64,000 nucleotides of DNA from Eledone cirrhosa (taxonomy: Eukaryota), in NCBI GenBank assembly GCA_964016885.1, contig OZ024740.1, forward strand, positions 193,936,001-194,000,000. Reading direction: 5' to 3'. The notes below the pieces were generated by a model. That model had not been told where the DNA came from, searched no databases, and was given only the letters and a program-made list of their open reading frames with translations. Positions 9,195-64,000 of the stretch are shown in pieces. Made by a program: the position numbers and the translations under genes. Each line of letters starts with the position of its first letter. The stretch's first letter is position 1.

Positions 9195-9200
<6 letters not shown>

Positions 9201-9310
9201 TTGAAAAAAATGAAAACGAAATTTCATTTCTCACTCTTAGTATGGCACTTAGTTAAATGTAAGTATGTATGTATACTACATACATATATGTATACAGACG
9301 TACAGTAGCA

Positions 9311-9349
<39 letters not shown>

Positions 9350-10260: not shown

Positions 10261-10340
<80 letters not shown>

Positions 10341-10672
10341 CACATATTCATACAGGTACACATACATATATGCACGCATCAGTTTAGCCGACGTTTATTA
10401 TAACGCCGGCCGCTTTGTTCGTTTGTTTGTCAACAAAGCGAACAGCCTGAATTTTTGCCATACGGTGTTAAGGCAACCACGTCACCTTTTTGTTCAACAC
10501 TGACACAGGAACGATGTACTAGTTTCAAGCTTGTTAGCTATCATCAGCACCGTTTACACATCTGCCAGATAGTTGAACGTTCGAAAGTATATACTTTCCT
10601 TATGAAAATTAACGGCTGAGCAGCCTAATTTGCATATTGAGTGAGTTAAATCGGTCAGGCATACCGAAAACT
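9195..10672 (-). repeat. Retrozyme-like tandem array, 3 units of ~470-530 bp, one HHR per unit
   Basis: HHRs at 9512-9556, 9982-10026 and 10510-10554: AACG(A/G)TG CTGATGA tagc-taacaa-gctt GAAA ctag TA CATCGTT. Unit length varies only in the internal (TA)n. Confidence 0.85.
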
Positions 10673-26189: not shown

Positions 26190-27624
26190 TATAAACGGAA
26201 AATATGAAACAAAATTTAATTTCTCACTCTTAGTACGGTTGTTAACTTAAATATAAGTATTTATACGTTCATACATATATATATACAGACGTGCAGTAGT
26301 TTGTATATATATATATATATATATATACATACATGCATGCACATATATATATGTACGTATGGATTCACCGAACATTTATTATAATGCTCGGTGTGTTTGC
26401 AAACAAACAGCCCGAATTAAGCCGTACGGTGTCTAGCAACCATCGTTGCTCATTTGTTCAACACTGACAAAGGAACGCTGTACTAGTTTCAAGCTTATTA
26501 TCTATCGTCAGCAACGTATACCTTCCCTCCAGATGGTTGAACGTTTGAAATTATATACTTTCCACATGCATATTAATGGCTGAGCAGCCTAATTTGCATA
26601 TCCAGTGAGTTAATCTGCCGGGGTACTGAAAACGATAAACGGAAAAAATGAAACGTAATTTCATTTCTCACTCTTAGTACGGCTGTTACTTAAATATAAA
26701 TAAGTATACGTACATACATATATGTATACAGACGTACAGTAGTATGTATATATATATACATACATGCACACATATATATATGTACGTATGGATTAACCGA
26801 ACATTTATTATAATGCTTGGTGTGTTTGTAAACAAACAACCCGAATTAAGCCTTAAAGTATATAGCAACTATCGTTGATCAATTGTTCAACACGGACAAA
26901 GGAACACTGTACTAGTTTCAAGCTTATTAGCTATCGTCAGCAACGTATAGCCTCCTGCCAGATGGTTGAACGTCTGAAAGTATATACTTTCCTTATGCAT
27001 ATTAACGGCTGAGCAGCCTAATTTGCATATCGTGTTAGTTAATCGGCCGGGGTACCGAAAACGATAAACGGAAAGAATGAAACGTAATTTCATTTCTCAC
27101 TCTTAGTACGGCTGTTACTTAAATATAAGTATGTATACGTACATACATATATGTATACAGACGTACAGTAGTATGTATATATGTATACATATATGCACAC
27201 ATATATATATGTACGTATGGATTCACCGAACATTTAATATAATGCTCGGTGTGTTTGTAAACAAACATCCCGAATTATGCCGTGCAGTGTGTAGCAACCA
27301 TCGTTGCTCATTTGTTCAACACTAACAAAGGAACGCTGTACTAGTTTCAAGCTTATTAGCTATCGTCAGCAACGCATACCTTCCTGCCAGATGGTTGAAC
27401 GTCTGAAAGTATATACTTTCCTTATGGATATTAACGGCTGAGCAGCCTAATTTGCATATCGAGAGAGTTAATCGGCCGGGGTACCGAAAACGATAAACGG
27501 AAAAAATTAAAAGAAATTTCATTTCTCACTCTTAGTACGGCTGTTACTTAAATATAAGTACGTATATGTACATACATATATGTATACAGACGTACAGTGG
27601 TATGTATATATATGTACATACATG

Positions 27625-27659
<35 letters not shown>

Positions 27660-28592
27660 GTATGGATTCACCGAACATTTATTATAATGCTCGGTTTGTT
27701 TGTAAACAAACATCCCGAATTAAGCCGTACAGTGTCTAGCAACAATCGTTGCTCATTTGTTCAACACTAACAAAGGAACGCTGTACTAGTTTCAAGCTTA
27801 TTAGCTATCATCAACAACGTATACCTTCCCTTCAGATGGTTGAACGTCTGAAAGTATATACTTTCCTTATGCATATTAACGGCTGAGCAGCCTAATTTAC
27901 ATATCGTGTTAGTCAATCGACCGGGATACCGAAAACGATAAACGAAAAGAATGAAACAAAATTTCATTTCTCACTCTTAGTATGGCAGTTACTTAAATAG
28001 AAGTATGTATACGTACATACATATATGTATACAGACGTACAGTAGTATGTATATATATATATACTTACATGCACATATATATATATATGTACGTATGGAT
28101 TCACCTAACATTTATTATAATGCTCGGTGTGTTTGTAAACAAACATCCGGAATTAAGCAGTGCAGTGTCTAGCAACCATCGTTGCTCATTTGTTCTACAC
28201 TGACAAAGGAACGCTGTATAAGTTTCAAGCTTATTAGCTATCGTCAGCAAAGTATACCTTCCTACCAGATGGTTGAACGTTTGAAAGTATATACTTTCCT
28301 TATGCATATTAACGGCTGAGCAACCTAGTTTGTATATCGAGTGAGTTAAGCGGCCGGGGTACCGAAAACGATAAAAGGAAAAAATTTAACGAAATTTCAT
28401 TTCTCACTCTTAGTACGGCGGTTACTTAAATATAAGTATGTATACGTATATACATATATGTATACAGACGTACAGTAGTATGTATATATATATATATACA
28501 TACATGCACACATATATATATGTATGTATGGATTCACCGAACATTTATTATAACGCTCGGTGTGTTTGTAAACAAACATCCCGAATTAAGCC
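26190..28592 (-). repeat. Retrozyme-like tandem array, ~5.5 units of ~430-445 bp, one HHR per full unit
   Basis: HHRs at ~26475-26517, 26904-26946, 27333-27375, 27778-27820 and 28211-28253: ACGTTG CTGACGA tagc-taataa-gctt GAAA ctag TA CAGCGT. Same family as 9195-10672. Confidence 0.85.
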
Positions 28593-29471: not shown

Positions 29472-29527
29472 ACTGTTATATATATTTCGATGATAGCCAT
29501 TGAATGGTTATGATCTCATCAGACAGT
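29472..29527 (-). ncRNA. Type I hammerhead ribozyme, same family as 886-940
   Basis: ACTGT CTGATGA GAT-cataaccattcaatggctatc-ATC GAAA tatata TA ACAGT. Confidence 0.85.
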
Positions 29528-29589
29528 TAGTCAGTTCTTAGATATGCCAGCTCTGTGTGTATAGTGTTGATGGTATCAGAGCCTTGGCA

Positions 29590-32500
29590 CATATGTACCG
29601 GCGGACAAGGGAGGCGCCGTAGTGGTGTAGCGCGCGGCCGAAGCCCTCAGGCAGCTCTGTAACCCCCTCTTTTACCGCCCTCTACCCTCCGATCCCACCC
29701 CCCTCTACCAACAACAAGTCTCCTCCACCATCAAATACCTTATCGCCTCATCCCTCCTCCCCCCACCGCTTCCAACCTCATCTTCCGCACCCCCGCACCC
29801 CCACCATCTACTTCCTCCCCAAACTCCACAAACCCGACAACCCCGGCAGCCCCATCGTCTCCGCTTTCAACTGCTCCACCGAACTCATCTCCGCCTTTCT
29901 CGACTCCCTCCTCGCCCCCCTTGTCACCACCCTCCCCTCCCACATCTCCGATACCAACCACGCCCTGCGCCTTTTCGACTCCTTCACCTACCCACCTGGC
30001 CCACAGCCCTTGCTCTTCACCCTAGACATCAAGTCCCTCTATAATGTCATCCCCCACGCCGACGGCCTTCGCGCCCTCAAACACTACCTCGACCTTCGCC
30101 CCTCCCCCATTCCCTCCACCCCCACCCTCCTTCGCCTCGCCGAGCTGGTCCTCACCCTGAATTGTTTCTCTTTCTCGGGTGAGTTTTACCAACAGGTCAC
30201 GGGGGTAGCCATGGGTACAAGAATGGGCCCGAACTATGCCAACCTTTTTGTTTGCCATGTTGAGGCCCAAATCTTTGCCCAGTACACCGGCCCCACGCCC
30301 GAACTGTACGGTCGTTACATTGACGACTGTATCGGAGCCACGACCCTCACCCGAGAACAGCTCGACTCCTTTCTCTCCTTCTTCTGCTCCTTCCACCCCT
30401 CCCTCCACTTCACCACCTCTATCTCCACCACCCACGTCCACTTCTTAGACATCTACGTCGCCTTCGACCCCTCCCACCACTCCCTCGTCACCTCCGCCTT
30501 CTTCAAACCCACCGACTCCCACTCTTACCTCGACTTCACCTCTTCCCACACCACCCACACTAAACACTCCATTCCATACTCCCAACTTCTCAGGATCCGC
30601 CGCCTCTGTAGCCGTGATGCTGACTTTGAGTCCTAGGCCCTTTCCCTAGTCAGCCATTTCATCCGCAGAGGTTACCCCACCCCCTTCTCTCGTCCACACC
30701 GCTCACACCCGCGCCCGTACTGTCCCCTGCTCCACCACCCTCACGCCACGCAACCGCATACCCACCCACCGTCTCCCCTTCCCCATCACCAACCACCCCT
30801 CCACCTTACCCCTCCACCGCACCATCCGCCGCCTCTTCCGACGCCTCCAGTCCGACCCCTCCACCTCCCACATATTCCCAACCCCACCACTCCCCTCCTT
30901 CAAACGCGCACGCAATCTCCGCACCCTCCTCGTCCACAGCTCCCTACCCCCAACCCACACTCTGTGTCCCCCCCCCGGTTCCTTTCCCTGTTCTAGGCCC
31001 CGCTGCAAAACCTGTCCCCACATCACCAACACCGCCACCTTCCAGGGTCCCAACGGCCACTCTCTCTCTGTCCGGCATGCATTCCACTGCACCTCTTCCA
31101 ACCTAGTCTACGACTTATGTCGGTCAGACGGGACGTCGCCTGGCGGACCGAGTCACGGAGCACCTCCGGGATATTCGTCTCGGGGGAAGTTCCCCCATCG
31201 CCCGCCACTTTGGTGGCCCTGGACATTCCGCACGCCATCTCACAGTCTGTGGCCTACTCCAGTGCCACGGACCACCCGCCAATCGCCTTACGGTCGAACA
31301 ACGAACTATCTTCATCTTACAGACCCACACTCCCCCGGCCGAACTCCCCACCCCTATTTCTTTAGCCTTCGACCGCCCCCTCCCCCCACACTTATCCCCC
31401 ACTAACACCACTAACACACCCCACCTTTTCACCGCCCACCCCACAACTAACAATACTAACACCTCCACTCCACCCCCAATCTGACAACCCTTCCCCAACT
31501 AACATACTAACATCCCTTCCCTCCCCTATTCTCCTCCTCCCCCTCCTTATCACACGCACACACCCACCGGCACATATATACACGCGCTCACACTAAACAC
31601 ACACCCTACTACCACCACTAACCCTCACCCCCACACCTCTCACCCCCACACCTCTATCCCACCACCCTGCAACTAACCTCACTAACAGCCCCTAACCCCA
31701 AGCACACGAACACACGCACCCACTTACACCACCCACCCCACACGCAACTAACATCACTAACACCCCCTAACCCCACGCACACGTACCCACACACCCTCGT
31801 ACACCACCAACTCTACACACCCTACCACCACTAACCCCCACTCACACCTGCATTCAACCCCTCCCCACCTCCCGTATACTAACACCCACTAACACCTCTT
31901 CATCAAACTACACACACACCAGTACACCACACTCCCTCCATAGAACCACACACATCCTTCTCTCCCCGCTCCACCCACACCCTCGCTCCACTCTCACTCA
32001 TCCCACTAACACCCCTACTAATACACACACACACACCCTCCTCACTCCAACTTTCACCCCTACCCATCCTCGCCCCTTTACCATTCCACCGACTGCTGCT
32101 ATGCCCTCTGACCACCTCCCAGCACAAACAGACCACAGCACTCCCACTGCTGACCACTTCCTGTTGCGCGCGCACCCCACATCTCTCTTCTTCAGACCAT
32201 CGCTTCATGGAATACCCACACGCAGAAATTGACCAATAACCAATCCACTAAACATCTTCGGAATTTACCAACTTTTCAACCATCCTCTTACGTAATCACC
32301 TATATAACTCACCCACACAAACACCCCCCAAAAAAATGTTCTACACACGCTACCTACACCCACAACACGCTTAAACCCCACACACACGTGCTTTCCACCA
32401 CATATTTACACCCTCAGCCACCTGATTCCTCTCACCCCACCCTTCTATCCACACACGCACAGACACTCCGACCCCCCCCCCCCCAAACACACCTCTTCCT

Positions 32501-38684: not shown

Positions 38685-38767
38685 ACTTCCCTGATGACGA
38701 AAGGCTTCTCTGTACACTTCTTCGGAAAGTATGTTTATTCCCTTTCAGAAACTAATTAGTTGGGAGT
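38685..38767 (+). ncRNA. Type I hammerhead ribozyme, family of 1813-1894
   Basis: ACTTCC CTGATGA c GAAAGG...CCTTTC a GAAA ctaattag TT GGGAGT; flanks match 1755-1925 in reverse. Confidence 0.85.
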
Positions 38768-44424: not shown

Positions 44425-44900
44425 ATAAATAAACATTTAGAAAACCATAGGTATGAATAATACTGGCAGCGAACGCCACCAAGCGGTGTTCGTCAGAAGT
44501 AAAGGGGACAATCGTCGATGCATTTCGAACTCAACTGCGGCTCGTGAGTACGATCCCAACCGCTCTTGCAACTATCGGACTTTAAAAGCAAAAATATATA
44601 GCGTTTCGTCTGTATAAATGAGCCGATTAATCTCATTCTATTCTATTTGAAGTTGAACCAACTTATACAACTGCATATATAAATCAGATTAATCACCTCA
44701 TTTACACAGACGAAAAAAACTATATATTTTTGCCTGTTTTCAAAGTCCGGCAGTTGCCAGAGCGGGAGGGATCGTCCCGCCGAGAACCAGTTGAGTCCGA
44801 AATGCATCGACGATTGTCCACCTTGCTTCCGTCAGGCACCACTTGGTGGTGGTGGCTGCCAGTATTATTCATAGCTATGGCTTTCTAAATGTATATTTAT
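44425..44900. mobile_element. Foldback/MITE-like element with long imperfect terminal inverted repeats
   Basis: catttagaaaaccataggtatgaataatactggcagc (44434-) pairs with gctgccagtattattcatagctatggctttctaaatg (-44891); arms ~200 bp; no HHR seen; TA-rich flanks. Confidence 0.75.
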
Positions 44901-44977: not shown

Positions 44978-45004
<27 letters not shown>

Positions 45005-45010
<6 letters not shown>

Positions 45011-47707
45011 TTAGAAACACACAGATACATGCGGACACACACATATATACATGAATGCATCCGCACCCAACTGTGAGTTAAGGGTGCCAACTTCGCCGAT
45101 GTTGCTCAATGAATGACTGGGACAGACCAATTCAGTTGAACTAGACTGAACCAGTATCAGAGTTAAAAATACATTATGAAGAGAGAAGAAACATTTAGAT
45201 ATAATTAGTAATAAAATGTATCATACCTAAACTGCTCCTAAATTCCTCGACTACGTAGTTTCGTGGCATAAACAAAAACAATATATCATAAATACATAGA
45301 GTCCTTGCGAGGTCTGCCGACTTATCAACAGGATACCTCATTTTACTAGTCTCAAGAACGCGTCTACACGACGTGAGAAAGAATCCCAAAAGGCGGAGGG
45401 GGAGATAGTCACGCGATATAACGGTCGAGAAACAGAGCTAAGCCTCTTATAACCCCGAAGAAAATACCACGGAGGCGGAGGGGGTATTTATATCGAGGCC
45501 GTAGTAGAGGTGGTGAAGAAGGCGAGAAGTATGAGTAATGGAAGCTTTCCAGCTGTCCCCACACTTCAAAGATTGCTCGACCAGAGGGAGTTGTTAACAA
45601 TATATTTAGAAACACACAGATACATGCGGACACATACATATATACATGAATGCATCCGCACCCAACTGTGAGTTAAGGGTGCCAACTTCACCGATGTTGC
45701 TCAATGAATGACTGGAACAGACCAATTCAGTTGAACTAGACTGAACCAGTATCAGAGTTAAAAATACATTATGAAGAGAGAAGAAACATTTAGATATAAT
45801 TAGTAATAAAATGTATCATACCTAAACTGCTCCTAAATGCCTCGACTACGTAGTTTCGTGGCATAAACAAAAACAATATATCATAAAGACATAGAGTCCT
45901 TGCGAGGTCTGCCGACTTATCAAGAGGATACCTCATTTTACTAGTCTCAAGAACGCGTCTACACGACGTGAGAAAGAATCCCAAAAGGCGGAGGGGGAGA
46001 TAGTCACGCGATATAACGGTCGAGAAACAGAGCTAAGCCTCTTATAACCCCGAAGAAAATACCACGGAGGCGGAGGGGGTATTTATATCGAGGCCGTAGA
46101 AGAGGTGGTGAAGAAGGCGAGAAGTATGAGTAATGGAAGCTTTCCAGCTGTCCCCACACTTCAAAGATTGCTCGACCAGAGGGAGTTGTTAACAATATAT
46201 TTAGAAACACGCAGATACATGCGGACACATACATATATACATGAATGCATCCGCACCCAACTGTGAGTTAAGGGTGCCAACTTCACCGATGTTGCTCAAT
46301 GAATGACTGGGACAGACCAATTCAGTTGAACTAGACTGAACCAGTATCAGAGTTAAAAATACATTATGAAGAGAGAAGAAACATTTAGATATAATTAGTA
46401 ATAAAATGTATCATACCTAAACTGCTCCTAAATTCCTCGACTACGTAGTTTCGTGGCATGAACAAAAACAATATATCATAAAGACATAGAGTCCTTGCGA
46501 GGTCTGCCGATTTATCAAGAGGATACCTCATTTTACTAGTCTCAAGAACGCGTCTACACGACGTGAGAAAGAATCCCAAAAGGCGGAGGGGGAGATAGTC
46601 ACGCGATATAACGGTCGAGAAACAGAGCTAAGCCTCTTATAACCCCGAAGAAAATACCACGGAGGCGGAGGGGGTATTTATATCGAGGCCGTAGAAGAGG
46701 TGGTGAAGAAGGCGAGAAGTATGAGTAATGGAAGCTTTCCAGCTGTCCCCACACTTCAAAGATTGCTCGACCAGAGGGAGTTATTAACAATATATTTAGA
46801 AACACACAGATACATGCGGACACACACATATATACATGAATGCATCCGCACCCAACTGTGAGTTAAGGGTGCCAACTTCAGCGATGTTGCTCAATGAATG
46901 ACTGGGACAGACCAATTCAGTTGAACTAGACTGAACCAGTATCAGAGTTAAAAATACATTATGAAGAGAGAAGAAACATTTAGATATAATTAGTAATAAA
47001 ATGTATCATACCTAAACTGCTCCTAAATTCCTCGACTACGTAGTTTCGTGGCATAAACAAAAACAATATATCATAAAGACATGGAGTCCTTGCGAGGTCT
47101 GCCGACTTATCAAGAGGATACCTCATTTTACTAGTCTCAAGAACGCGTCTACACGACGTGAGAAAGAATCCCAAAAGGCGGAGGGGGAGATAGTCACGCG
47201 ATATAACGGTCGAGAAACAGAGCTAAGCCTCTCATAACCCCGAAGAAAATACCACGGAGGCGGAGGGGGTATTTATATCGAGGCCGTAGAAGAGGTGGTG
47301 AAGAAGGCGAGAAGTATGAGTAATGGAAGCTTTCCAGCTGTCCCCACACTTCAAAGATTGCTCGACCAGAGGGAGTTATTAACAATATATTTAGAAACAC
47401 ACAGATACATGCGGACACACACATATATACATGAATGCATCCGCACCCAACTGTGAGTTAAGGGTGCCAACTTCAGCGATGTTGCTCAATGAATGACTGG
47501 GACAGACCAATTCAGTTGAACTAGACTGAACCAGTATCAGAGTTAAAAATACATTATGAAGAGAGAAGAAAAATTTAGATATAATTAGTAATAAAATGTA
47601 TCATACCTAAACTGCTCCTAAATTCCTCGACTACGTAGTTTCGTGGCATAAACAAAAACAATATATCATAAAGACATAGAGACCTTGCGAGGTCTGCCGA
47701 CTTATCA
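45005..47707 (-). repeat. 595-bp tandem array, inverted block (~4.5 units)
   Basis: ORF track period is exactly 595 (45195, 45790, 46385, 46980); HHRs at 45244-45333, 45839-45928, 46434-46523, 47029-47118 and a truncated one at 47624-47707. Confidence 0.95.
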
Positions 47708-50700
47708 TACTTCTCGCCTTCTTCACCACCTCTTCTACGGCCTCGATATAAATACCCCCTCCGCCTCCGTGGTATTTTCTTCGGGGTTATAAGAGGCTTA
47801 GCTCTGTTTCTCGACCGTTATATCGCGTGACTATCTCCCCCTCCGCCTTTTGGGATTCTTTCTCACGTCGAGTAGACGCGTTCTTGAGACTAGTAAAATG
47901 AGGTATCCTCTTGATAAGTCGGCAGACCTCGCAAGGACTCTATGTCTTTATGATATATTGTTTTTGTTTATGCCACGAAACTACGTAGTCGAGGAATTTA
48001 GGAGCAGTTTAGGTATGATACATTTTATTACTAATTATATCTAAATGTTTCTTCTCTCTTCATAATGTATTTTTAACTCTGATACTGGTTCAGTCTAGTT
48101 CAACTGAATTGGTCTGTCCCAGTCATTCATTGAGCAACATCGGTGAAGTTGGCACCCTTAACTCACAGTTGGGTGCGGATGCATTCATGTATATATGTGT
48201 GTGTCCGCATGTATCTGTGTGTTTCTAAATATATTGTTAATAACTCCCTCTGGTTGAGCAATCTTTGAAGTGTGGGGACAGCTGGAAAGCTTCCATTACT
48301 CATACTTCTCGCCTTCTTCACCACCTCTTCTACGGCCTCGATATAAATACCCCCTCCGCCTCCGTGGTATTTTCTTCGGGGTTATAAGAGGCTTAGCTCT
48401 GTTTCTCGACCGTTATATCGCGTGACTATCTCCCCCTCCGCCTTTTGGGATTCTTTCTCACGTCGTGTAGACGCGTTCTTGAGACTAGTAAAATGAGGTA
48501 TCCTCTTGATAAGTCGGCTGACCTCGCAAGGACTCTATGTCTTTATGATATATTGTTTTTGTTTATGCCACGAAACTACGTCGTCGAGGAATTTAGGAGC
48601 AGTTTAGGTATGATACATTTTATTACTAATTATATCTAAATGTTTCTTCTCTCTTCATAATGTATTTTTAACTCTGATACTGGTTCAGTCTAGTTCAACT
48701 GAATTGGTCTGTCCCAGTCATTCATTGAGCAACATCGGTGAAGTTGGCACCCTTAACTCACAGTTGGGTGCGGATGCATTCATGTATATATGTGTGTGTC
48801 CGCATGTATCTGTGTGTTTCTAAATATATTGTTAATAACTCCCTCTGGTCGAGCAATCTTTGAAGTGTGGGGACAGCTGGAAAGCTTCCATTACTCATAC
48901 TTCTCGCCTTCTTCACCACCTCTTCTACGGCCTCGATATAAATACCCCCTCCGCCTCCGTGGTATTTTCTTCGGGGTTATAAGAGGCTTAGCTCTGTTTC
49001 TCGACCGTTATATCGCGTGATTATCTCTCCCTCCGCCTTTTGGGATTCTTTCTCACGTTGTGTAGACGCGTTCTTGAGACTAGTAAAATGAGGTATCCTC
49101 TTGATAAGTCGGCAGACCTCGCAAGGACTCTATGTCTTTATGATATATTGTTTTTGTTTATGCCACGAAACTACGTAGTCGAGGAATTTAGGAGCAGTTT
49201 AGGTATGATACATTTTATTACTAATTATATCTAAATGTTTCTTCTCTCTTCATAATGTATTTTTAACTCTGATACTGGTTCAGTCTAGTTCAACTGAATT
49301 GGTCTGTCCCAGTCATTCATTGAGCAACATCGGTGAAGTTGGCACCCTTAACTCACAGTTGGGTGCGGATGCATTCATGTATATATGTGTGTGTCCGCAT
49401 GTATCTGTGTGTTTCTAAATATATTGTTAATAACTCCCTCTGGTCGAGCAATCTTTGAAGTGTGGGGACAGCTGGAAAGCTTCCATTACTCATACTTCTC
49501 GCCTTCTTCACCACCTCTTCTACGGCCTCGATATAAATACCCCCTCCGCCTCCGTGGTATTTTCTTCGGGGTTATAAGAGGCTTAGCTCTGTTTCTCGAC
49601 CGTTATATCGCGTGACTATCTCCCCCTCCGCCTTTTGGGATTCTTTCTCACGTCGTGTAGACGCGTTCTTGAGACTAGTAAAATGAGGTATCCTCTTGAT
49701 AAGTCGGCAGACCTCGCAAGGACTCTATGTCTTTATGATATATTGTTTTTGTTTATGCCACGAAACTACGTAGTCGAGGAATTTAGGAGCAGTTTAGGTA
49801 TGATACATTTTATTACTAATTATATCTAAATGTTTCTTCTCTCTTCATAATGTATTTTTAACTCTGATACTGGTTCAGTCTAGTTCAACTGAATTGGTCT
49901 GTCCCAGTCATTCATTGAGCAACATCTTTGAAGTTGGCACCCTTAACTCACAGTTGGGTGCGGATGCATTCATGTATATATGTGTGTGTCCGCATGTATC
50001 TGTGTGTTTCTAAATATATTGTTAACAACTCCCTCTGGTCGAGCAATCTTTGAAGTGTGGGGACAGCTGGAAAGCTTCCATTACTCATACTTCTCGCCTT
50101 CTTCACCACCTCTTCTACGGCCTCGATATAAATACCCCCTCCGCCTCCGTGGTATTTTCTTCGGGGTTATAAGAGGCTTAGCTCTGTTTCTCGACCGTTA
50201 TATCGCGTGACTATCTCCCCCTCCGCCTTTTGGGATTCTTTCTCACGTCGTGTAGACGCGTTCTTGAGACTAGTAAAATGAGGTATCCTCTTGATAAGTC
50301 GGCAGACCTCGCAAGGACTCTATGTCTTTATGATATATTGTTTTTGTTTATGCCACGAAACTACGTAGTCGAGGAATTTAGGAGCAGTTTAGGTATGATA
50401 CATTTTATTACTAATTATATCTAAATGTTTCTTCTCTCTTCATAATGTATTTTTAACTCTGATACTGGTTCAGTCTAGTTCAACTGAATTGGTCTGTCCC
50501 AGTCATTCATTGAGCAACATCGGTGAAGTTGGCACCCTTAACTCACAGTTGGGTGCGGATGCATTCATGTATATATGTGTGTGTCCGCATGTATCTGTGT
50601 GTTTCTAAATATATTGTTAATAACTCCCTCTGGTCGAGCAATCTTTGAAGTGTGGGGACAGCTGGAAAGCTTCCATTACTCATACTTCTCGCCTTCTTCA

Positions 50701-53700
50701 CCACCTCTTCTACGGCCTCGATATAAATACCCCCTCCGCCTCCGTGGTATTTTCTTCGGGGTTATAAGAGGCTTAGCTCTGTTTCTCGACCGTTATATCG
50801 CGTGACTATCTCCCCCTCCGCCTTTTGGGATTCTTTCTCACGTCGTGTAGACGCGTTCTTGAGACTAGTAAAATGAGGTATCCTCTTGATAAGTCGGCTG
50901 ACCTCGCAAGGACTCTATGTCTTTATGATATATTGTTTTTGTTTATGCCACGAAACTACGTCGTCGAGGAATTTAGGAGCAGTTTAGGTATGATACATTT
51001 TATTACTAATTATATCTAAATGTTTCTTCTCTCTTCATAATGTATTTTTAACTCTGATACTGGTTCAGTCTAGTTCAACTGAATTGGTCTGTCCCAGTCA
51101 TTCATTGAGCAACATCGGTGAAGTTGGCACCCTTAACTCACAGTTGGGTGCGGATGCATTCATGTATATATGTGTGTGTCCGCATGTATCTGTGTGTTTC
51201 TAAATATATTGTTAATAACTCCCTCTGGTCGAGCAATCTTTGAAGTGTGGGGACAGCTGGAAAGCTTCCATTACTCATACTTCTCGCCTTCTTCACCACC
51301 TCTTCTACGGCCTCGATATAAATACCCCCTCCGCCTCCGTGGTATTTTCTTCGGGGTTATAAGAGGCTTAGCTCTGTTTCTCGACCGTTATATCGCGTGA
51401 TTATCTCTCCCTCCGCCTTTTGGGATTCTTTCTCACGTTGTGTAGACGCGTTCTTGAGACTAGTAAAATGAGGTATCCTCTTGATAAGTCGGCAGACCTC
51501 GCAAGGACTCTATGTCTTTATGATATATTGTTTTTGTTTATGCCACGAAACTACGTAGTCGAGGAATTTAGGAGCAGTTTAGGTATGATACATTTTATTA
51601 CTAATTATATCTAAATGTTTCTTCTCTCTTCATAATGTATTTTTAACTCTGATACTGGTTCAGTCTAGTTCAACTGAATTGGTCTGTCCCAGTCATTCAT
51701 TGAGCAACATCGGTGAAGTTGGCACCCTTAACTCACAGTTGGGTGCGGATGCATTCATGTATATATGTGTGTGTCCGCATGTATCTGTGTGTTTCTAAAT
51801 ATATTGTTAATAACTCCCTCTGGTCGAGCAATCTTTGAAGTGTGGGGACAGCTGGAAAGCTTCCATTACTCATACTTCTCGCCTTCTTCACCACCTCTTC
51901 TACGGCCTCGATATAAATACCCCCTCCGCCTCCGTGGTATTTTCTTCGGGGTTATAAGAGGCTTAGCTCTGTTTCTCGACCGTTATATCGCGTGACTATC
52001 TCCCCCTCCGCCTTTTGGGATTCTTTCTCACGTCGTGTAGACGCGTTCTTGAGACTAGTAAAATGAGGTATCCTCTTGATAAGTCGGCAGACCTCGCAAG
52101 GACTCTATGTCTTTATGATATATTGTTTTTGTTTATGCCACGAAACTACGTAGTCGAGGAATTTAGGAGCAGTTTAGGTATGATACATTTTATTACTAAT
52201 TATATCTAAATGTTTCTTCTCTCTTCATAATGTATTTTTAACTCTGATACTGGTTCAGTCTAGTTCAACTGAATTGGTCTGTCCCAGTCATTCATTGAGC
52301 AACATCTTTGAAGTTGGCACCCTTAACTCACAGTTGGGTGCGGATGCATTCATGTATATATGTGTGTGTCCGCATGTATCTGTGTGTTTCTAAATATATT
52401 GTTAACAACTCCCTCTGGTCGAGCAATCTTTGAAGTGTGGGGACAGCTGGAAAGCTTCCATTACTCATACTTCTCGCCTTCTTCACCACCTCTTCTACGG
52501 CCTCGATATAAATACCCCCTCCGCCTCCGTGGTATTTTCTTCGGGGTTATAAGAGGCTTAGCTCTGTTTCTCGACCGTTATATCGCGTGACTATCTCCCC
52601 CTCCGCCTTTTGGGATTCTTTCTCACGTCGTGTAGACGCGTTCTTGAGACTAGTAAAATGAGGTATCCTCTTGATAAGTCGGCAGACCTCGCAAGGACTC
52701 TATGTCTTTATGATATATTGTTTTTGTTTATGCCACGAAACTACGTAGTCGAGGAATTTAGGAGCAGTTTAGGTATGATACATTTTATTACTAATTATAT
52801 CTAAATGTTTCTTCTCTCTTCATAATGTATTTTTAACTCTGATACTGGTTCAGTCTAGTTCAACTGAATTGGTCTGTCCCAGTCATTCATTGAGCAACAT
52901 CGGTGAAGTTGGCACCCTTAACTCACAGTTGGGTGCGGATGCATTCATGTATATATGTGTGTGTCCGCATGTATCTGTGTGTTTCTAAATATATTGTTAA
53001 TAACTCCCTCTGGTCGAGCAATCTTTGAAGTGTGGGGACAGCTGGAAAGCTTCCATTACTCATACTTCTCGCCTTCTTCACCACCTCTTCTACGGCCTCG
53101 ATATAAATACCCCCTCCGCCTCCGTGGTATTTTCTTCGGGGTTATAAGAGGCTTAGCTCTGTTTCTCGACCGTTATATCGCGTGACTATCTCCCCCTCCG
53201 CCTTTTGGGATTCTTTCTCACGTCGTGTAGACGCGTTCTTGAGACTAGTAAAATGAGGTATCCTCTTGATAAGTCGGCAGACCTCGCAAGGACTCTATGT
53301 CTTTATGATATATTGTTTCTGTTTATGCCACGAAACTACGTAGTCGAGGAATTTAGGAGCAGTTTAGGTATGATACATTTTATTACTAATTATATCTAAA
53401 TGTTTCTTCTCTCTTCATAATGTATTTTTAACTCTGATACTGGTTCAGTCTAGTTCAACTGAATTGGTCTGTCCCAGTCATTCATTGAGCAACATCGGTC
53501 AAGTTGGTACCCTTAACTCACAGTTGGGTGCGGATGCATTCATGTATATATGTGTGTGCCCGCATGTATCTGTGTGTTTCTAAATATATTGTTAATAACT
53601 CCCTCTGGTCGAGCAATCTTTGAAGTGTGGGGACAGCTGGAAAGCTTCCATTACTCATACTTCTCGCCTTCTTCACCACCTCTTCTACGGCCTCGATATA

Positions 53701-56700
53701 AATACCCCCTCCGCCTCCGTGGTATTTTCTTCGGGGTTATAAGAGGCTTAGCTCTGTTTCTCGACCGTTATATCGCGTGACTATCTCCCCCTCCGCCTTT
53801 TGGGATTCTTTCTCACGTCGTGTAGACGCGTTCTTGAGACTAGTAAAATGAGGTATCCTCTTGATAAGTCGGCAGACCTCGCAAGGACTCTATGTCTTTA
53901 TGATATATTGTTTTTGTTTATGCCACGAAACTACGTCGTCGAGGAATTTAGGAGCAGTTTAGGTATGATACATTTTATTACTAATTATATCTAAATGTTT
54001 CTTCTCTCTTCATAATGTATTTTTAACTCTGATACTGGTTCAGTCTAGTTCAACTGAATTGGTCTGTCCCAGTCATTCATTGAGCAACATCGGTGAAGTT
54101 GGCACCCTTAACTCACAGTTGGGTGCGGATGCATTCATGTATATATGTGTGTGTCCGCATGTATCTGTGTGTTTCTAAATATATTGTTAATAACTCCCTC
54201 TGGTCGAGCAATCTTTGAAGTGTGGGGACAGCTGGAAAGCTTCCATTACTCATACTTCTCGCCTTCTTCACCACCTCTTCTACGGCCTCGATATAAATAC
54301 CCCCTCCGCCTCCGTGGTATTTTCTTCGGGGTTATAAGAGGCTTAGCTCTGTTTCTCGACCGTTATATCGCGTGATTATCTCCCCCTCCGCCTTTTGGGA
54401 TTCTTTCTCACGTTGTGTAGACGCGTTCTTGAGACTAGTAAAATGAGGTATCCTCTTGATAAGTCGGCAGACCTCGCAAGGACTCTATGTCTTTATGATA
54501 TATTGTTTTTGTTTATGCCACGAAACTACGTAGTCGAGGAATTTAGGAGCAGTTTAGGTATGATACATTTTATTACTAATTATATCTAAATGTTTCTTCT
54601 CTCTTCATAATGTATTTTTAACTCTGATACTGGTTCAGTCTAGTTCAACTGAATTGGTCTGTCCCAGTCATTCATTGAGCAACATCGGTGAAGTTGGCAC
54701 CCTTAACTCACAGTTGGGTGCGGATGCATTCATGTATATATGTGTGTGTCCGCATGTATCTGTGTGTTTCTAAATATATTGTTAATAACTCCCTCTGGTC
54801 GAGCAATCTTTGAAGTGTGGGGACAGCTGGAAAGCTTCCATTACTCATACTTCTCGCCTTCTTCACCACCTCTTCTACGGCCTCGATATAAATACCCCCT
54901 CCGCCTCCGTGGTATTTTCTTCGGGGTTATAAGAGGCTTAGCTCTGTTTCTCGACCGTTATATCGCGTGACTATCTCCCCCTCCGCCTTTTGGGATTCTT
55001 TCTCACGTCGTGTAGACGCGTTCTTGAGACTAGTAAAATGAGGTATCCTCTTGATAAGTCGGCAGACCTCGCAAGGACTCTATGTCTTTATGATATATTG
55101 TTTTTGTTTATGCCACGAAACTACGTAGTCGAGGAATTTAGGAGCAGTTTAGGTATGATACATTTTATTACTAATTATATCTAAATGTTTCTTCTCTCTT
55201 CATAATGTATTTTTAACTCTGATACTGGTTCAGTCTAGTTCAACTGAATTGGTCTGTCCCAGTCATTCATTGAGCAACATCTTTGAAGTTGGCACCCTTA
55301 ACTCACAGTTGGGTGCGGATGCATTCATGTATATATGTGTGTGTCCGCATGTATCTGTGTGTTTCTAAATATATTGTTAACAACTCCCTCTGGTCGAGCA
55401 ATCTTTGAAGTGTGGGGACAGCTGGAAAGCTTCCATTACTCATACTTCTCGCCTTCTTCACCACCTCTTCTACGGCCTCGATATAAATACCCCCTCCGCC
55501 TCCGTGGTATTTTCTTCGGGGTTATAAGAGGCTTAGCTCTGTTTCTCGACCGTTATATCGCGTGACTATCTCCCCCTCCGCCTTTTGGGATTCTTTCTCA
55601 CGTCGTGTAGACGCGTTCTTGAGACTAGTAAAATGAGGTATCCTCTTGATAAGTCGACAGACCTCGCAAGGACTCTATGTCTTTATGATATATTGTTTTT
55701 GTTTATGCCACGAAACTACGTAGTCGAGGAATTTAGGAGCAGTTTAGGTATGATACATTTTATTACTAATTATATCTAAATGTTTCTTCTCTCTTCATAA
55801 TGTATTTTTAACTCTGATACTGGTTCAGTCTAGTTCAACTGAATTGGTCTGTCCCAGTCATTCATTGAGCAACATCGGTGAAGTTGGCACCCTTAACTCA
55901 CAGTTGGGTGCGGATGCATTCATGTATATATGTGTGTGTCCGCATGTATCTGTGTGTTTCTAAATATATTGTTAATAACTCCCTCTGGTCGAGCAATCTT
56001 TGAAGTGTGGGGACAGCTGGAAAGCTTCCATTACTCATACTTCTCGCCTTCTTCACCACCTCTTCTACGGCCTCGATATAAATACCCCCTCCGCCTCCGT
56101 GGTATTTTCTTCGGAGTTATAAGAGGCTTAGCTCTGTTTCTCGACCGTTATATCGCGTGACTATCTCCCCCTCCGCCTTTTGGGATTCTTTCTCACGTCG
56201 TGTAGACGCGTTCTTGAGACTAGTAAAATGAGGTATCCTCTTGATAAGTCGGCAGACCTCGCAAGGACTCTATGTCTTTATGATATATTGTTTTTGTTTA
56301 TGCCACGAAACTACGTAGTCGAGGAATTTAGGAGCAGTTTAGGTATGATACATTTTATTACTAATTATATCTAAATGTTTCTTCTCTCTTCATAATGTAT
56401 TTTTAACTCTGATACTGGTTCAGTCTAGTTCAACTGAATTGGTCTGTCCCAGTCATTCATTGAGCAACATCTTTGAAGTTGGCACCCTTAACTCACAGTT
56501 GGGTGCGGATGCATTCATGTATATATGTGTGTGTCCGCATGTATCTGTGTGTTTCTAAATATATTGTTAATAACTCCCTCTGGTCGAGCAATCTTTGAAG
56601 TGTGGGGACAGCTGGAAAGCTTCCATTACTCATACTTCTCGCCTTCTTCACCACCTCTTCTACGGCCTCGATATAAATACCCCCTCCGCCTCCGTGGTAT

Positions 56701-59700
56701 TTTCTTCGGGGTTATAAGAGGCTTAGCTCTGTTTCTCGACCGTTATATCGCGTGACTATCTCCCCCTCCGCCTTTTGGGATTCTTTCTCACGTCGTGTAG
56801 ACGCGTTCTTGAGACTAGTAAAATGAGGTATCCTCTTGATAAGTCGGCAGACCTCGCAAGGACTCTATGTCTTTATGATATATTGTTTCTGTTTATGCCA
56901 CGAAACTACGTAGTCGAGGAATTTAGGAGCAGTTTAGGTATGATACATTTTATTACTAATTATATCTAAATGTTTCTTCTCTCTTCATAATGTATTTTTA
57001 ACTCTGATACTGGTTCAGTCTAGTTCAACTGAATTGGTCTGTCCCAGTCATTCATTGAGCAACATCGGTCAAGTTGGTACCCTTAACTCACAGTTGGGTG
57101 CGGATGCATTCATGTATATATGTGTGTGCCCGCATGTATCTGTGTGTTTCTAAATATATTGTTAATAACTCCCTCTGGTCGAGCAATCTTTGAAGTGTGG
57201 GGACAGCTGGAAAGCTTCCATTACTCATACTTCTCGCCTTCTTCACCACCTCTTCTACGGCCTCGATATAAATACCCCCTCCGCCTCCGTGGTATTTTCT
57301 TCGGGGTTATAAGAGGCTTAGCTCTGTTTCTCGACCGTTATATCGCGTGACTATCTCCCCCTCCGCCTTTTGGGATTCTTTCTCACGTCGTGTAGACGCG
57401 TTCTTGAGACTAGTAAAATGAGGTATCCTCTTGATAAGTCGGCAGACCTCGCAAGGACTCTATGTCTTTATGATATATTGTTTTTGTTTATGCCACGAAA
57501 CTACGTCGTCGAGGAATTTAGGAGCAGTTTAGGTATGATACATTTTATTACTAATTATATCTAAATGTTTCTTCTCTCTTCATAATGTATTTTTAACTCT
57601 GATACTGGTTCAGTCTAGTTCAACTGAATTGGTCTGTCCCAGTCATTCATTGAGCAACATCGGTGAAGTTGGCACCCTTAACTCACAGTTGGGTGCGGAT
57701 GCATTCATGTATATATGTGTGTGTCCGCATGTATCTGTGTGTTTCTAAATATATTGTTAATAACTCCCTCTGGTCGAGCAATCTTTGAAGTGTGGGGACA
57801 GCTGGAAAGCTTCCATTACTCATACTTCTCGCCTTCTTCACCACCTCTTCTACGGCCTCGATATAAATACCCCCTCCGCCTCCGTGGTATTTTCTTCGGG
57901 GTTATAAGAGGCTTAGCTCTGTTTCTCGACCGTTATATCGCGTGATTATCTCCCCCTCCGCCTTTTGGGATTCTTTCTCACGTTGTGTAGACGCGTTCTT
58001 GAGACTAGTAAAATGAGGTATCCTCTTGATAAGTCGGCAGACCTCGCAAGGACTCTATGTCTTTATGATATATTGTTTTTGTTTATGCCACGAAACTACG
58101 TAGTCGAGGAATTTAGGAGCAGTTTAGGTATGATACATTTTATTACTAATTATATCTAAATGTTTCTTCTCTCTTCATAATGTATTTTTAACTCTGATAC
58201 TGGTTCAGTCTAGTTCAACTGAATTGGTCTGTCCCAGTCATTCATTGAGCAACATCGGTGAAGTTGGCACCCTTAACTCACAGTTGGGTGCGGATGCATT
58301 CATGTATATATGTGTGTGTCCGCATGTATCTGTGTGTTTCTAAATATATTGTTAATAACTCCCTCTGGTCGAGCAATCTTTGAAGTGTGGGGACAGCTGG
58401 AAAGCTTCCATTACTCATACTTCTCGCCTTCTTCACCACCTCTTCTACGGCCTCGATATAAATACCCCCTCCGCCTCCGTGGTATTTTCTTCGGGGTTAT
58501 AAGAGGCTTAGCTCTGTTTCTCGACCGTTATATCGCGTGACTATCTCCCCCTCCGCCTTTTCGGATTCTTTCTCACGTCGTGTAGACGCGTTCTTGAGAC
58601 TAGTAAAATGAGGTATCCTCTTGATAAGTCGGCAGACCTCGCAAGGACTCTATGTCTTTATGATATATTGTTTTTGTTTATGCCACGAAACTACGTAGTC
58701 GAGGAATTTAGGAGCAGTTTAGGTATGATACATTTTATTACTAATTATATCTAAATGTTTCTTCTCTCTTCATAATGTATTTTTAACTCTGATACTGGTT
58801 CAGTCTAGTTCAACTGAATTGGTCTGTCCCAGTCATTCATTGAGCAACATCTTTGAAGTTGGCACCCTTAACTCACAGTTGGGTGCGGATGCATTCATGT
58901 ATATATGTGTGTGTCCGCATGTATCTGTGTGTTTCTAAATATATTGTTAACAACTCCCTCTGGTCGAGCAATCTTTGAAGTGTGGGGACAGCTGGAAAGC
59001 TTCCATTACTCATACTTCTCGCCTTCTTCACCACCTCTTCTACGGCCTCGATATAAATACCCCCTCCGCCTCCGTGGTATTTTCTTCGGGGTTATAAGAG
59101 GCTTAGCTCTGTTTCTCGACCGTTATATCGCGTGACTATCTCCCCCTCCGCCTTTTGGGATTCTTTCTCACGTCGTGTAGACGCGTTCTTGAGACTAGTA
59201 AAATGAGGTATCCTCTTGATAAGTCGACAGACCTCGCAAGGACTCTATGTCTTTATGATATATTGTTTTTGTTTATGCCACGAAACTACGTAGTCGAGGA
59301 ATTTAGGAGCAGTTTAGGTATGATACATTTTATTACTAATTATATCTAAATGTTTCTTCTCTCTTCATAATGTATTTTTAACTCTGATACTGGTTCAGTC
59401 TAGTTCAACTGAATTGGTCTGTCCCAGTCATTCATTGAGCAACATCGGTGAAGTTGGCACCCTTAACTCACAGTTGGGTGCGGATGCATTCATGTATATA
59501 TGTGTGTGTCCGCATGTATCTGTGTGTTTCTAAATATATTGTTAATAACTCCCTCTGGTCGAGCAATCTTTGAAGTGTGGGGACAGCTGGAAAGCTTCCA
59601 TTACTCATACTTCTCGCCTTCTTCACCACCTCTTCTACGGCCTCGATATAAATACCCCCTCCGCCTCCGTGGTATTTTCTTCGGAGTTATAAGAGGCTTA

Positions 59701-62700
59701 GCTCTGTTTCTCGACCGTTATATCGCGTGACTATCTCCCCCTCCGCCTTTTGGGATTCTTTCTCACGTCGTGTAGACGCGTTCTTGAGACTAGTAAAATG
59801 AGGTATCCTCTTGATAAGTCGGCAGACCTCGCAAGGACTCTATGTCTTTATGATATATTGTTTTTGTTTATGCCACGAAACTACGTAGTCGAGGAATTTA
59901 GGAGCAGTTTAGGTATGATACATTTTATTACTAATTATATCTAAATGTTTCTTCTCTCTTCATAATGTATTTTTAACTCTGATACTGGTTCAGTCTAGTT
60001 CAACTGAATTGGTCTGTCCCAGTCATTCATTGAGCAACATCTTTGAAGTTGGCACCCTTAACTCACAGTTGGGTGCGGATGCATTCATGTATATATGTGT
60101 GTGTCCGCATGTATCTGTGTGTTTCTAAATATATTGTTAATAACTCCCTCTGGTCGAGCAATCTTTGAAGTGTGGGGACAGCTGGAAAGCTTCCATTACT
60201 CATACTTCTCGCCTTCTTCACCACCTCTTCTACGGCCTCGATATAAATACCCCCTCCGCCTCCGTGGTATTTTCTTCGGGGTTATAAGAGGCTTAGCTCT
60301 GTTTCTCGACCGTTATATCGCGTGACTATCTCCCCCTCCGCCTTTTGGGATTCTTTCTCACGTCGTGTAGACGCGTTCTTGAGACTAGTAAAATGAGGTA
60401 TCCTCTTGATAAGTCGGCAGACCTCGCAAGGACTCTATGTCTTTATGATATATTGTTTCTGTTTATGCCACGAAACTACGTAGTCGAGGAATTTAGGAGC
60501 AGTTTAGGTATGATACATTTTATTACTAATTATATCTAAATGTTTCTTCTCTCTTCATAATGTATTTTTAACTCTGATACTGGTTCAGTCTAGTTCAACT
60601 GAATTGGTCTGTCCCAGTCATTCATTGAGCAACATCGGTGAAGTTGGTACCCTTAACTCACAGTTGGGTGCGGATGCATTCATGTATATATGTGTGTGCC
60701 CGCATGTATCTGTGTGTTTCTAAATATATTGTTAATAACTCCCTCTGGTCGAGCAATCTTTGAAGTGTGGGGACAGCTGGAAAGCTTCCATTACTCATAC
60801 TTCTCGCCTTCTTCACCACCTCTTCTACGGCCTCGATATAAATACCCCCTCCGCCTCCGTGGTATTTTCTTCGGGGTTATAAGAGGCTTAGCTCTGTTTC
60901 TCGACCGTTATATCGCGTGACTATCTCCCCCTCCGCCTTTTGGGATTCTTTCTCACGTCGTGTAGACGCGTTCTTGAGACTAGTAAAATGAGGTATCCTC
61001 TTGATAAGTCGGCAGACATCGAAAGGACTCTATGTCTTTATGATATATTGTTTTTGTTTATGCCACGAAACTACGTAGTCGAGGAATTTAGGAGCAGTTT
61101 AGGTATGATACATTTTATTACTAATTATATCTAAATGTTTCTTCTCTCTTCATAATGTATTTTTAACTCTGATACTGGTTCAGTCTAGTTCAACTGAATT
61201 GGTCTGTCCCAGTCATTCATTGAGCAACATCGGTGAAGTTGGCACCCTTAACTCACAGTTGGGTGCGGATGCATTCATGGATATATGTGTGTGTCCGCAT
61301 GTATCTGTGTGTTTCTAAATATATTGTTAATAACTCCCTCTGGTCGAGCAATCTTTGAAGTGTGGGGACAGCTGGAAAGCTTCCATTACTCATACTTCTC
61401 GCCTTCTTCACCACCTCTTCTACGGCCTCGATATAAATACCCCCTCCGCCTCCGTGGTATTTTCTTCGGGGTTATAAGAGGCTTAGCTCTGTTTCTCGAC
61501 CGTTATATCGCGTGACTATCTCCCCCTCCGCCTTTTGGGATTCTTTCTCACGTCGTGTAGACGCGTTCTTGTGACTAGTAAAATGAGGTATCCTCTTGAT
61601 AAGTCGGCAGACCTCGAAAGGACTCTATGTCTTTATGATATATTGTTTTTGTTTATGCCACGAAACTACGTAGTCGAGGAATTTAGGAGCAGTTTAGGTA
61701 TGATACATTTTATTACTAATTATATCTAAATGTTTCTTCTCTCTTCATAATGTATTTTTAACTCTGATACTGGTTCAGTCTAGTTCAACTGAATTGGTCT
61801 GTCCCAGTCATTCATTGAACTACATCTTTGAAGTTGGCACCCTTAACTCACAGTTGGGTGCGGATGCATTCATGTATATATGTGTGTGTCCGCATGTATC
61901 TGTGTGTTTCTAAATATATTGTTAATAACTCCCTCTGGTCGAGCAATCTTTGAAGTGTGGGGACAGCTGGAAAGCTTCCATTACTCATACTTCTCGCCTT
62001 CTTCACCACCTCTTCTACGGCCTCGATATAAATACCCCCTCCGCCTCCGTGGTATTTTCTTCGGGGTTATAAGAGGCTTAGCTCTGTTTCTCGACCGTTA
62101 TATCGCGTGACTATCTCCCCCTCCGCCTTTTGGGATTCTTTCTCACGTCGTGTAGACGCGTTCTTGTGACTAGTAAAATGAGGTATCCTCTTGATAAGTC
62201 GGCAGACCTCGAAAGGACTCTATGTCTTTATGATATATTGTTTCTGTTTATGCCACGAAACTACGTAGTCGAGGAATTTAGGAGCAGTTTAGGTATGATA
62301 CATTTTATTACTAATTATATCTAAATGTTTCTTCTCTCTTCATAATGTATTTTTAACTCTGATACTGGTTCAGTCTAGTTCAACTGAATTGGTCTGTCCC
62401 AGTCATTCATTGAGCAACATCGGTGAAGTTGGTACCCTTAACTCACAGTTGGGTGCGGATGCATTCATGTATATATGTGTGTGCCCGCATGTATCTGTGT
62501 GTTTCTAAATATATTGTTAATAACTCCCTCTGGTCGAGCAATCTTTGAAGTGTGGGGACAGCTGGAAAGCTTCCATTACTCATACTTCTCGCCTTCTTCA
62601 CCACCTCTTCTACGGCCTCGATATAAATACCCCCTCCGCCTCCGTGGTATTTTCTTCGGGGTTATAAGAGGCTTAGCTCTGTTTCTCGACCGTTATATCG

Positions 62701-64000
62701 CGTGACTATCTCCCCCTCCGCCTTTTGGGATTCTTTCTCACGTCGTGTAGACGCGTTCTTGAGACTAGTAAAATGAGGTATCCTCTTGATAAGTCGGCAG
62801 ACATCGAAAGGACTCTATGTCTTTATGATATATTGTTTTTGTTTATGCCACGAAACTACGTAGTCGAGGAATTTAGGAGCAGTTTAGGTATGATACATTT
62901 TATTACTAATTATATCTAAATGTTTCTTCTCTCTTCATAATGTATTTTTAACTCTGATACTGGTTCAGTCTAGTTCAACTGAATTGGTCTGTCCCAGTCA
63001 TTCATTGAGCAACATCGGTGAAGTTGGCACCCTTAACTCACAGTTGGGTGCGGATGCATTCATGGATATATGTGTGTGTCCGCATGTATCTGTGTGTTTC
63101 TAAATATATTGTTAATAACTCCCTCTGGTCGAGCAATCTTTGAAGTGTGGGGACAGCTGGAAAGCTTCCATTACTCATACTTCTCGCCTTCTTCACCACC
63201 TCTTCTACGGCCTCGATATAAATACCCCCTCCGCCTCCGTGGTATTTTCTTCGGGGTTATAAGAGGCTTAGCTCTGTTTCTCGACCGTTATATCGCGTGA
63301 CTATCTCCCCCTCCGCCTTTTGGGATTCTTTCTCACGTCGTGTAGACGCGTTCTTGTGACTAGTAAAATGAGGTATCCTCTTGATAAGTCGGCAGACCTC
63401 GAAAGGACTCTATGTCTTTATGATATATTGTTTTTGTTTATGCCACGAAACTACGTAGTCGAGGAATTTAGGAGCAGTTTAGGTATGATACATTTTATTA
63501 CTAATTATATCTAAATGTTTCTTCTCTCTTCATAATGTATTTTTAACTCTGATACTGGTTCAGTCTAGTTCAACTGAATTGGTCTGTCCCAGTCATTCAT
63601 TGAACTACATCTTTGAAGTTGGCACCCTTAACTCACAGTTGGGTGCGGATGCATTCATGTATATATGTGTGTGTCCGCATGTATCTGTGTGTTTCTAAAT
63701 ATATTGTTAATAACTCCCTCTGGTCGAGCAATCTTTGAAGTGTGGGGACAGCTGGAAAGCTTCCATTACTCATACTTCTCGCCTTCTTCACCACCTCTTC
63801 TACGGCCTCGATATAAATACCCCCTCCGCCTCCGTGGTATTTTCTTCGGGGTTATAAGAGGCTTAGCTCTGTTTCTCGACCGTTATATCGCGTGACTATC
63901 TCCCCCTCCGCCTTTTGGGATTCTTTCTCATGTCGTGTAGACGCGTTCTTGAGACTAGTAAAATGAGGTATCCTCTTGATAAGTCGGCAGACCTCGCAAG
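47705..64000 (+). repeat. 595-bp tandem array, forward block (~27.4 units, continues past the window), one HHR per unit
   Basis: Exact 595-bp period from 47850 to 63320 in the ORF track; units differ by a few substitutions and no net indel. Confidence 0.97.
47906..47995 (+). ncRNA. Type I hammerhead ribozyme, U3-A8 core variant (first forward copy; repeats every 595 bp to 63376-63465)
   Basis: TCCTC TTGATAA GT-c-GGCA...TGCC-AC GAAA CTACGTAG TC GAGGA. Stem I TCCTC/GAGGA, palindromic stem III, GUC with predicted cleavage after 47990. Confidence 0.8.

Follow-up and report, generated by a model that had tools for sequence, protein, structure and literature searches.

The 64,000-nt stretch of Eledone cirrhosa DNA analysed here (the window) contains a tandem array in which each 595-bp unit carries the sequence TTGATAA. 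In RNA this reads UUGAUAA, positions 3-9 of a hammerhead core with U3-A8 in place of C3-G8, seen by descriptor match and family counts at 47911-47917 on the + strand. The question is whether such a core belongs to a ribozyme that works or to a relic that has been copied many times. We consider it likely that UUGAUAA is the U3-A8 core of a working, probably slow, dimer-dependent retrozyme ribozyme, present in some 6,000 copies and predicted to be mobilised by a Penelope-like RT. A sequence-only reading of the window had stated that both departures from consensus, at positions 3 and 8, are present in every unit read, and all 32 array cores do read TTGATAA, 28 on the + strand (from 47911 to 63976, with a period of 595) and four on the - strand (at 47113, 46518, 45923 and 45328). 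It had also taken the double change as a sign of selection and not of chance. The array itself proves little in this respect: the copies are near-clonal, variation among the 33 full array units being confined to 39 of 595 sites, so that two given sites have a probability of 0.87 of being invariant. Therefore, the presence of TTGATAA in every unit counts as one observation, not 32.

Our assignment of the motif to the hammerheads is based on our own descriptor, folding and conservation. Three helices surround the core on the + strand in the type I layout, with an open-ended stem I. The 5' strand of stem I (TCCTC, 47906-47910) pairs with its 3' strand (GAGGA, 47991-47995) with pair probabilities of 0.71-0.77. 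The 59-nt stem II (47918-47976), delimited by descriptor and folding, consists of G10.1-C11.1, a U-A pair, a bulged C, GGCA/UGCC and a variable hairpin insert of 46 nt (47925-47970), of which 13 sites differ between subfamilies. It is followed by G12, A13, A14 and A15.1 (GAAA, 47977-47980), which are invariant between subfamilies, and by stem III (47980-47989), a perfect palindrome, ACTACGTAGT, which predicts a dimeric ribozyme. According to hammerhead numbering, the cleavage site is predicted to lie after GUC17, between C17 at 47990 and the G at 47991. The motif combines a Watson-Crick pair between positions 3 and 8 with GAAA, U16.1 and C17, as a type I core does.

The constrained hammerhead fold (-23.3 kcal/mol) lies 1.1 kcal/mol above the MFE (-24.4 kcal/mol), and within a monomer, stem III and the base of stem II have pair probabilities of just 0.08-0.16. 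The stem III palindrome is weak as a hairpin; between two units it forms a 10-bp duplex of -12.9 kcal/mol, the layout predicted for animal hammerheads that act as dimers in the available part of PMC4209133. No tertiary contact between loop 1 and loop 2 was recognised by eye in the predicted fold, and mussel retrozyme motifs are likewise described as free of a loop-loop contact in the accessible text of PMC7229834. The Rfam hammerhead models gave no match at gathering score across the window, and at E<=10 on 47850-48060 they gave four weak matches, all unrelated. Since Rfam also missed the canonical-core motifs of the window, the absence of a match reflects the scope of the models and is weak evidence. 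We regard the motif at 47911-47917 as a type I hammerhead with a natural U3-A8 variant, that is, as a predicted ribozyme. Just 5' of the core lies GAGG-UAU-CCUC (47898-47910), which is invariant between subfamilies; its GAGG (47900-47903) is able to pair with the CCUC of stem I, with a pair probability of about 0.1, and the element is possibly a switch or a portion of a start signal. A 557-bp family described below shows a similar GAG/CTC arrangement.

One monomer, counted from cleavage site to cleavage site, comprises 595 nt (47991-48585, + strand), and its sense strand is predicted to be highly structured. The long arm of the array (47705-64000, + strand) measures 17,621 bp, or 29.6 units, extends 1,325 bp beyond the window and ends within (TA)n, 80 nt after a cleavage site. 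Head-to-head with it lies an inverted short arm of 2,704 bp, or 4.5 units (45004-47707, - strand), which ends 245 nt after a cleavage site, also within (TA)n, and whose 5' end is cut inside a core at the head-to-head junction. The (TA)n target repeat is seen in the sequence at the left end of the insertion (44978-45010). Variants of the long arm recur every 4, 6 and 3 units, a mark of tandem duplication, showing that the window array was later lengthened in this way. Array copies with decayed stems were observed at 48582, 50962, 53937 and 57507 and, on the - strand, at 46518 and 45328; an A-to-C change breaks the stem III palindrome in four units, one unit has G10.1A, and the closing pair of stem I is broken in another. 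Coding was rejected as an explanation of the core: the only frame through the ribozyme has 48 codons, is frameshifted in a 591-bp subfamily and is not maintained across subfamilies. To the left of the array, at 44460-44900, imperfect inverted repeats surround a segment of about 400 bp that looks MITE-like by eye.

More informative than the array are diverged relatives. Some fetched loci are just 76-90% identical to the window unit, and an old subfamily was recovered by using the non-ribozyme DNA of one divergent locus as query, whereby 30 loci were fetched. Its cores were extracted with flanks allowed 3 and 2 mismatches, and one of the 45 distinct cores belongs to a young copy. U3-A8 is found in 43 of the 45, comprising 41 TTGATAA and two with another change, and C3-A8 in the remaining two, one of which is the query's own locus. 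The majority sequences of the old (12 monomers) and young (51 monomers) subfamilies are 77.5% identical. They agree at all 13 core positions and differ at 1 of 30 positions in the stems, at 13 of 46 in the stem II insert and at 142 of 552 in the non-ribozyme part; thus 1 of 43 ribozyme positions differs as against 142 of 552 in the rest (Fisher p=7e-5). Positions 3 and 8 taken alone would both be unchanged with P=0.55, so the conservation signal belongs to the whole motif. The longest invariant ribozyme blocks, of 29 and 19+5 nt, stand on either side of the freely changing insert and span both catalytic halves, including GAAA, U16.1 and C17; the 29-nt block (47896-47924, + strand) is the longest run unchanged between the two majorities and includes GAGG at 47900-47903. 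A further invariant block of 22 nt lies outside the ribozyme (unit positions 395-416).

Folded as a circle, the monomer reaches -183.6 against -129.5 for its antisense strand, with a z of -6.7 against 30 shuffles. Of 191 monomer pairs, 162 are kept in the old subfamily, where the null gives 137.5+-4.4; for the antisense fold, used as a control, the excess is not significant (p=0.09). Compensatory double changes in the monomer (8, with 4.9 expected) do not reach significance by themselves (p=0.10). These comparisons give good evidence that transposing lineages have kept an RNA fold in which the U3-A8 hammerhead is intact, and the conservation of the motif between subfamilies points to purifying selection in the transposing lineage. 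The selection proposed by the sequence-only reading is thereby upheld, through conservation of the motif between subfamilies that have diverged by about 23% and not through its invariance in the array.

The 3.0-Gb genome was searched with a pattern that left positions 3 and 8 free. Among 6116 matches, 6091 are U3-A8 and none is C3-G8. Position 3 departs in 11 copies (5 C, 4 G, 2 A) and position 8 in 14 (8 G, 2 C, 4 T), all 25 being single changes; accordingly, the covariation of positions 3 and 8 that might have been expected among family members is not seen within the family. Genome-wide, no C3-G8 relative with the same stem III at a distance of 50-68 nt was found, nor one with the same flanks as the 595-bp family; distant relatives with other flanks may exist. 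That the ancestor was C3-G8 is deduced from the consensus of known hammerheads. The family has a non-coding tandem unit that contains a single type I hammerhead; its many dispersed copies range from monomers to arrays, and 73 loci were mapped. Two loci have broken cores in both of their tandem units, U3-G8 in one (L101) and U3-U8 in the other (L102); here a mutated template may have been copied, or a later duplication may have occurred. Public sequencing runs were also searched for the unit, and no RNA run was among those listed. Parts of the unit occur in 20 rows from 16 studies; the four runs examined contain 1-3 contig fragments each at a depth of 2-7, and three of them span 47911-47917 with no change there. 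For a repeat with 6,000 copies this depth is much too low and suggests trace or carried-over DNA, so we draw nothing from it about horizontal transfer.

The sequence-only reading had further seen a single-step U3-G8 state in other hammerheads of the window. Both motifs are real; they belong to unrelated families and are single C-to-T changes that resemble decay. The U3-G8 core at 27814 (- strand) is found in one of five units of a 429-bp family, the other four units of this array, near 26 kb, being CTGACGA. The TTGATGA at 8321-8327 is weakly hammerhead, with a 4-bp stem I, a 2-bp stem II and GAAA near 8358. A near-perfect inverted repeat of 268 bp (8096-8363) has TTGATGA in both arms and is probably a decayed two-armed insertion. 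Searches of window positions 1-44900 with the 595-bp unit (blastn, nhmmer) matched only microsatellite-like stretches.

The natural C3-G8 comparator for the 595-bp family is a retrozyme-like family of 557 bp, whose cores lie at 1889 and 2446 (- strand) and which has a relative at 38691 (+ strand). This 557-bp family has a C3-G8 core, the same architecture with the palindromic stem III ACTAATTAGT, two arms, (TA)n ends, and a long stem II in which compensatory changes distinguish the subfamilies. Its pattern has 12,636 genomic matches, overlapping ones included. There are 73 scattered U3-G8 copies (74 matches, one being an unrelated sequence), and U3-A8 was found in none of the 73 family matches. 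Six look-alike copies had hinted at U3-G8 as a transposing intermediate. This candidate was rejected, as their subfamily contains 95 C3-G8, four U3-G8 and one C3-A8 among 100 listed of 116; one of the U3-G8 copies adjoins a C3-G8 twin. In these alignments, U3-G8 looks like the usual C-to-T decay of inserted copies. The sequences of the 557-bp and 595-bp families only hint at homology, with a global alignment z of about 3 and no nhmmer match.

Further hammerhead-like motifs are scattered over the window. A 470-bp array (9196-10600, - strand) and the 429-bp array (26191-28592, - strand) have a compact type I hammerhead per unit, in which stem III reads ACTAGT and U10.1-U11.1 is mismatched, as in axolotl HHR_Amex2 (in the accessible text of PMC7229834), and their stem I covaries between the arrays. 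An inverted hammerhead-like pair at 41481 (-) and 41560 (+), one C3-G8 and one G3-G8, has an 11-12-bp stem II, and single C3-G8 hammerhead-like motifs occur at 935 (-), 34421 (+), 37749 (-) and 26034 (+). Moreover, a minimal hammerhead at 29522 (-) adjoins a frameshifted RT ORF at 29623-31484 (+; Pfam RVT_1, E 8e-5), in which a GIY-YIG-like stretch was seen by eye; the region 29522-31484 is a probable decayed Penelope-like element, and this RT-bearing element (29.5-31.4 kb) showed no homology to the 595-bp unit. An interrupted non-LTR retrotransposon-like ORF (RVT_1, E 2e-24) lies at 20582-23778 (+).

How the 595-bp family spreads can be read from the anatomy of its insertions. The 73 mapped loci have variable 5' ends, whereas their 3' ends are fixed at about +80 or about +245 nt past the cleavage site, into (TA)n; the old subfamily has the same two ends. 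Among 40 head-to-head pairs in these loci, 32 are +80/+245, one is +80/+80 and none is +245/+245, the rest being four with another end and three cut by the fetched edge; one locus carries its pair twice. In 26 loci, opposite arms differ by 0.74%, compared with 2.0% between loci, and have 13 private alleles in common and 42 not. Since opposite arms are closer to each other and share private alleles, both appear to derive from one template. In a second array, four variants are common to 13 of 13 full units of both arms. Three loci (L050, L076 and L080) have inversion junctions in or beside the stem III palindrome, which is a possible fold-back hotspot for such junctions.

At the cleavage site the 5' ends show no accumulation. 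The counts are 14 of 23 matches, representing 11 distinct junctions, and, for the control, 4-5 of 30 matches fetched from a total of 183; the test is a rough one, in which the site and control patterns match different subfamily sets. The RT thus appears to read past this site, as either a circular template or an uncleaved multimer would lead one to expect. This read-through and the structured sense strand are compatible, though no more than that, with linear and circular monomer RNAs. Hallmarks of Penelope insertions are an inverted copy with 5' truncation, (TA)n targets and a tail present at one end (in the accessible text of PMC8557442), and in Penelope the RT starts at two internal sites and both strands are extended (PMC11167929). 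In vitro, Penelope insertion did not need cleavage, cleavage itself needed the protein, and in Anolis no reads end at the cleavage site (PMC11167929). The 595-bp copies show 5' truncation, an inverted adjacent copy, a tail at one end and a microsatellite target, as Penelope-dependent elements do. Judged by these insertions, the 595-bp element is a non-LTR retrozyme with Penelope-type ends.

We propose that a tandem locus would be transcribed, and that two neighbouring units would pair through the palindromic stem III, be cut at GUC17 and release monomers, which would then circularise. A Penelope-like RT/endonuclease would nick (TA)n and start cDNA at +80 and +245 nt past the cleavage site, with one start site per DNA end, and would read through the junction; in the window, tandem duplication would then have lengthened the array. 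Selection would act only on copies that found new subfamilies, and inserted copies would decay neutrally. The U3-A8 swap would be a single event that predates the divergence of the subfamilies, with two transitions (C to U and G to A) as the simplest route. As to activity, we are fairly confident in expecting a slow, dimer- or protein-assisted predicted ribozyme. The swap does keep the pair, as the sequence-only reading had argued; the step from there to function is weaker, since a kept pair is not a kept rate. In pairwise mutagenesis of a type III hammerhead, only the G3-C8 swap restored activity and other doubles in the region had low activity (in the accessible part of PMC9901934), so cleavage by U3-A8 may be slow.

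The main rival, which we hold to be unlikely, is a conserved non-cleaving fold or binding site of hammerhead descent, for a Penelope protein or as promoter DNA, with the uncleaved multimer as template. The TGATAA within the core also matches the GATA-factor site, and the invariant 22-nt block at unit positions 395-416 lies outside the ribozyme. The dispensability of cleavage in vitro and the Anolis reads (PMC11167929) agree with such a fold, as do the lack of a 5'-end pile-up in E. cirrhosa, the poor activity of most 3/8 doubles in the accessible part of PMC9901934 and the broken-core alleles common to tandem units in L101 and L102. However, the invariant blocks of 29 and 19+5 nt cover both catalytic halves, and variants with a broken pair (<=8 of 6116) founded no subfamily.

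A neutral fossil, that is, an already dead hammerhead that took on two common transitions (C to T and G to A) and was later amplified with the repeat, its pairing being coincidental, would account for a pair of changes that are both transitions toward A/T and for the lack of 3/8 covariation within the family; as the swap is a single event, moreover, copy number carries no weight. A dead motif should nevertheless diverge like the rest of the unit, contrary to the 1 of 43 against 142 of 552 differences, and the chance that two core changes fall at 3 and 8 and pair is roughly 0.7%, assuming 11 positions and half transitions. We therefore hold the fossil to be very improbable. Hardly credible, in turn, is an ordinary satellite grown by DNA recombination only, without an RNA step. 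The repetition of long-arm variants every 4, 6 and 3 units speaks for recombination, but duplication accounts for the length of the window array and not for the family, which has short, 5'-truncated insertions with fixed 3' ends in (TA)n on many chromosomes and a structure conserved on one strand only. Finally, within the reading of a slow working ribozyme, U3-A8 might be a selected attenuator, a slow core adopted repeatedly by Penelope-dependent RNAs so that multimers and circles survive until reverse transcription, with cleavage activated by dimerisation or the Penelope protein; we put this forward as a speculative and rather doubtful extension.

The U3-A8 swap is already known. A natural U3-A8 covariation was reported in 2011 and described there as active in vitro per earlier work (Perreault et al., PMC3088659, in its accessible part), and in 2014 U3-A8 was reported in about 1,300 Schistosoma Penelope motifs (PMC4209133, likewise); hammerhead biochemistry is unchanged by our finding. 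The hammerheads of PMC3088659 share the covariation; as far as the accessible text goes, they are few examples and are not traced through the subfamilies of one mobile element. The Cercyon min-HHRs of Schistosoma mansoni, as given in the available part of PMC4209133, resemble the present motif in being type I, in U3-A8, in more than 1000 genomic copies, in a Penelope context and in predicted dimer action. They are, however, minimal, mostly single, heterogeneous and tied to a coding element, whereas the 595-nt unit is a non-coding tandem with a 10-nt palindromic stem III and a 59-nt stem II.

Tandem type I hammerhead repeats are known as non-LTR retrozymes (Cervera and de la Pena 2020, PMC7229834), and a retrozyme-Penelope link is argued in a 2026 preprint (Li, Clavereau and Pollet, 10.64898/2026.07.22.740005). 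Like the metazoan retrozymes described there, the 595-bp family is a non-coding tandem with one type I hammerhead per unit and GC below 45%, ranging from monomers to long arrays; Penelope dependence and a circular RNA intermediate are proposed for those retrozymes and predicted for this family. The 595-bp unit is about twice the typical 300 bp and inside the 51-972 bp range of the preprint, in whose accessible part eight of nine Xenopus retrozyme dimers showed no cleavage in vitro. With Penelope insertions (Craig et al. 2021, PMC8557442, accessible text; Frangieh et al. 2024, PMC11167929) the family shares 5' truncation, partial tandems, an inverted adjacent copy, a tail at one end, (TA)n targets and internal RT starts downstream of the hammerhead. 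Unlike Penelope elements in these two sources, the unit has no ORF, and its tail is about 165 nt as compared with 30-40.

What the new element adds is an evolutionary test beyond the cited literature, namely a U3-A8 core fixed through long and still recent transposition. Its fixation suggests that the weaker pair would suffice in vivo, despite poor activity in one deep-mutagenesis study (PMC9901934, accessible part). In addition, such a core is likely missed by canonical CUGANGA descriptors and by Rfam (some 6,000 motifs here), so that retrozyme counts are likely underestimates. The 595-bp family also offers suitable material for studying the role of ribozyme cleavage in the Penelope cycle. 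If the attenuator reading were true, a U3-A8 family conserved across 23% divergence and a matched C3-G8 family of more than 10,000 copies would form a natural paired experiment on why mobile elements retain a ribozyme that is not needed for insertion.
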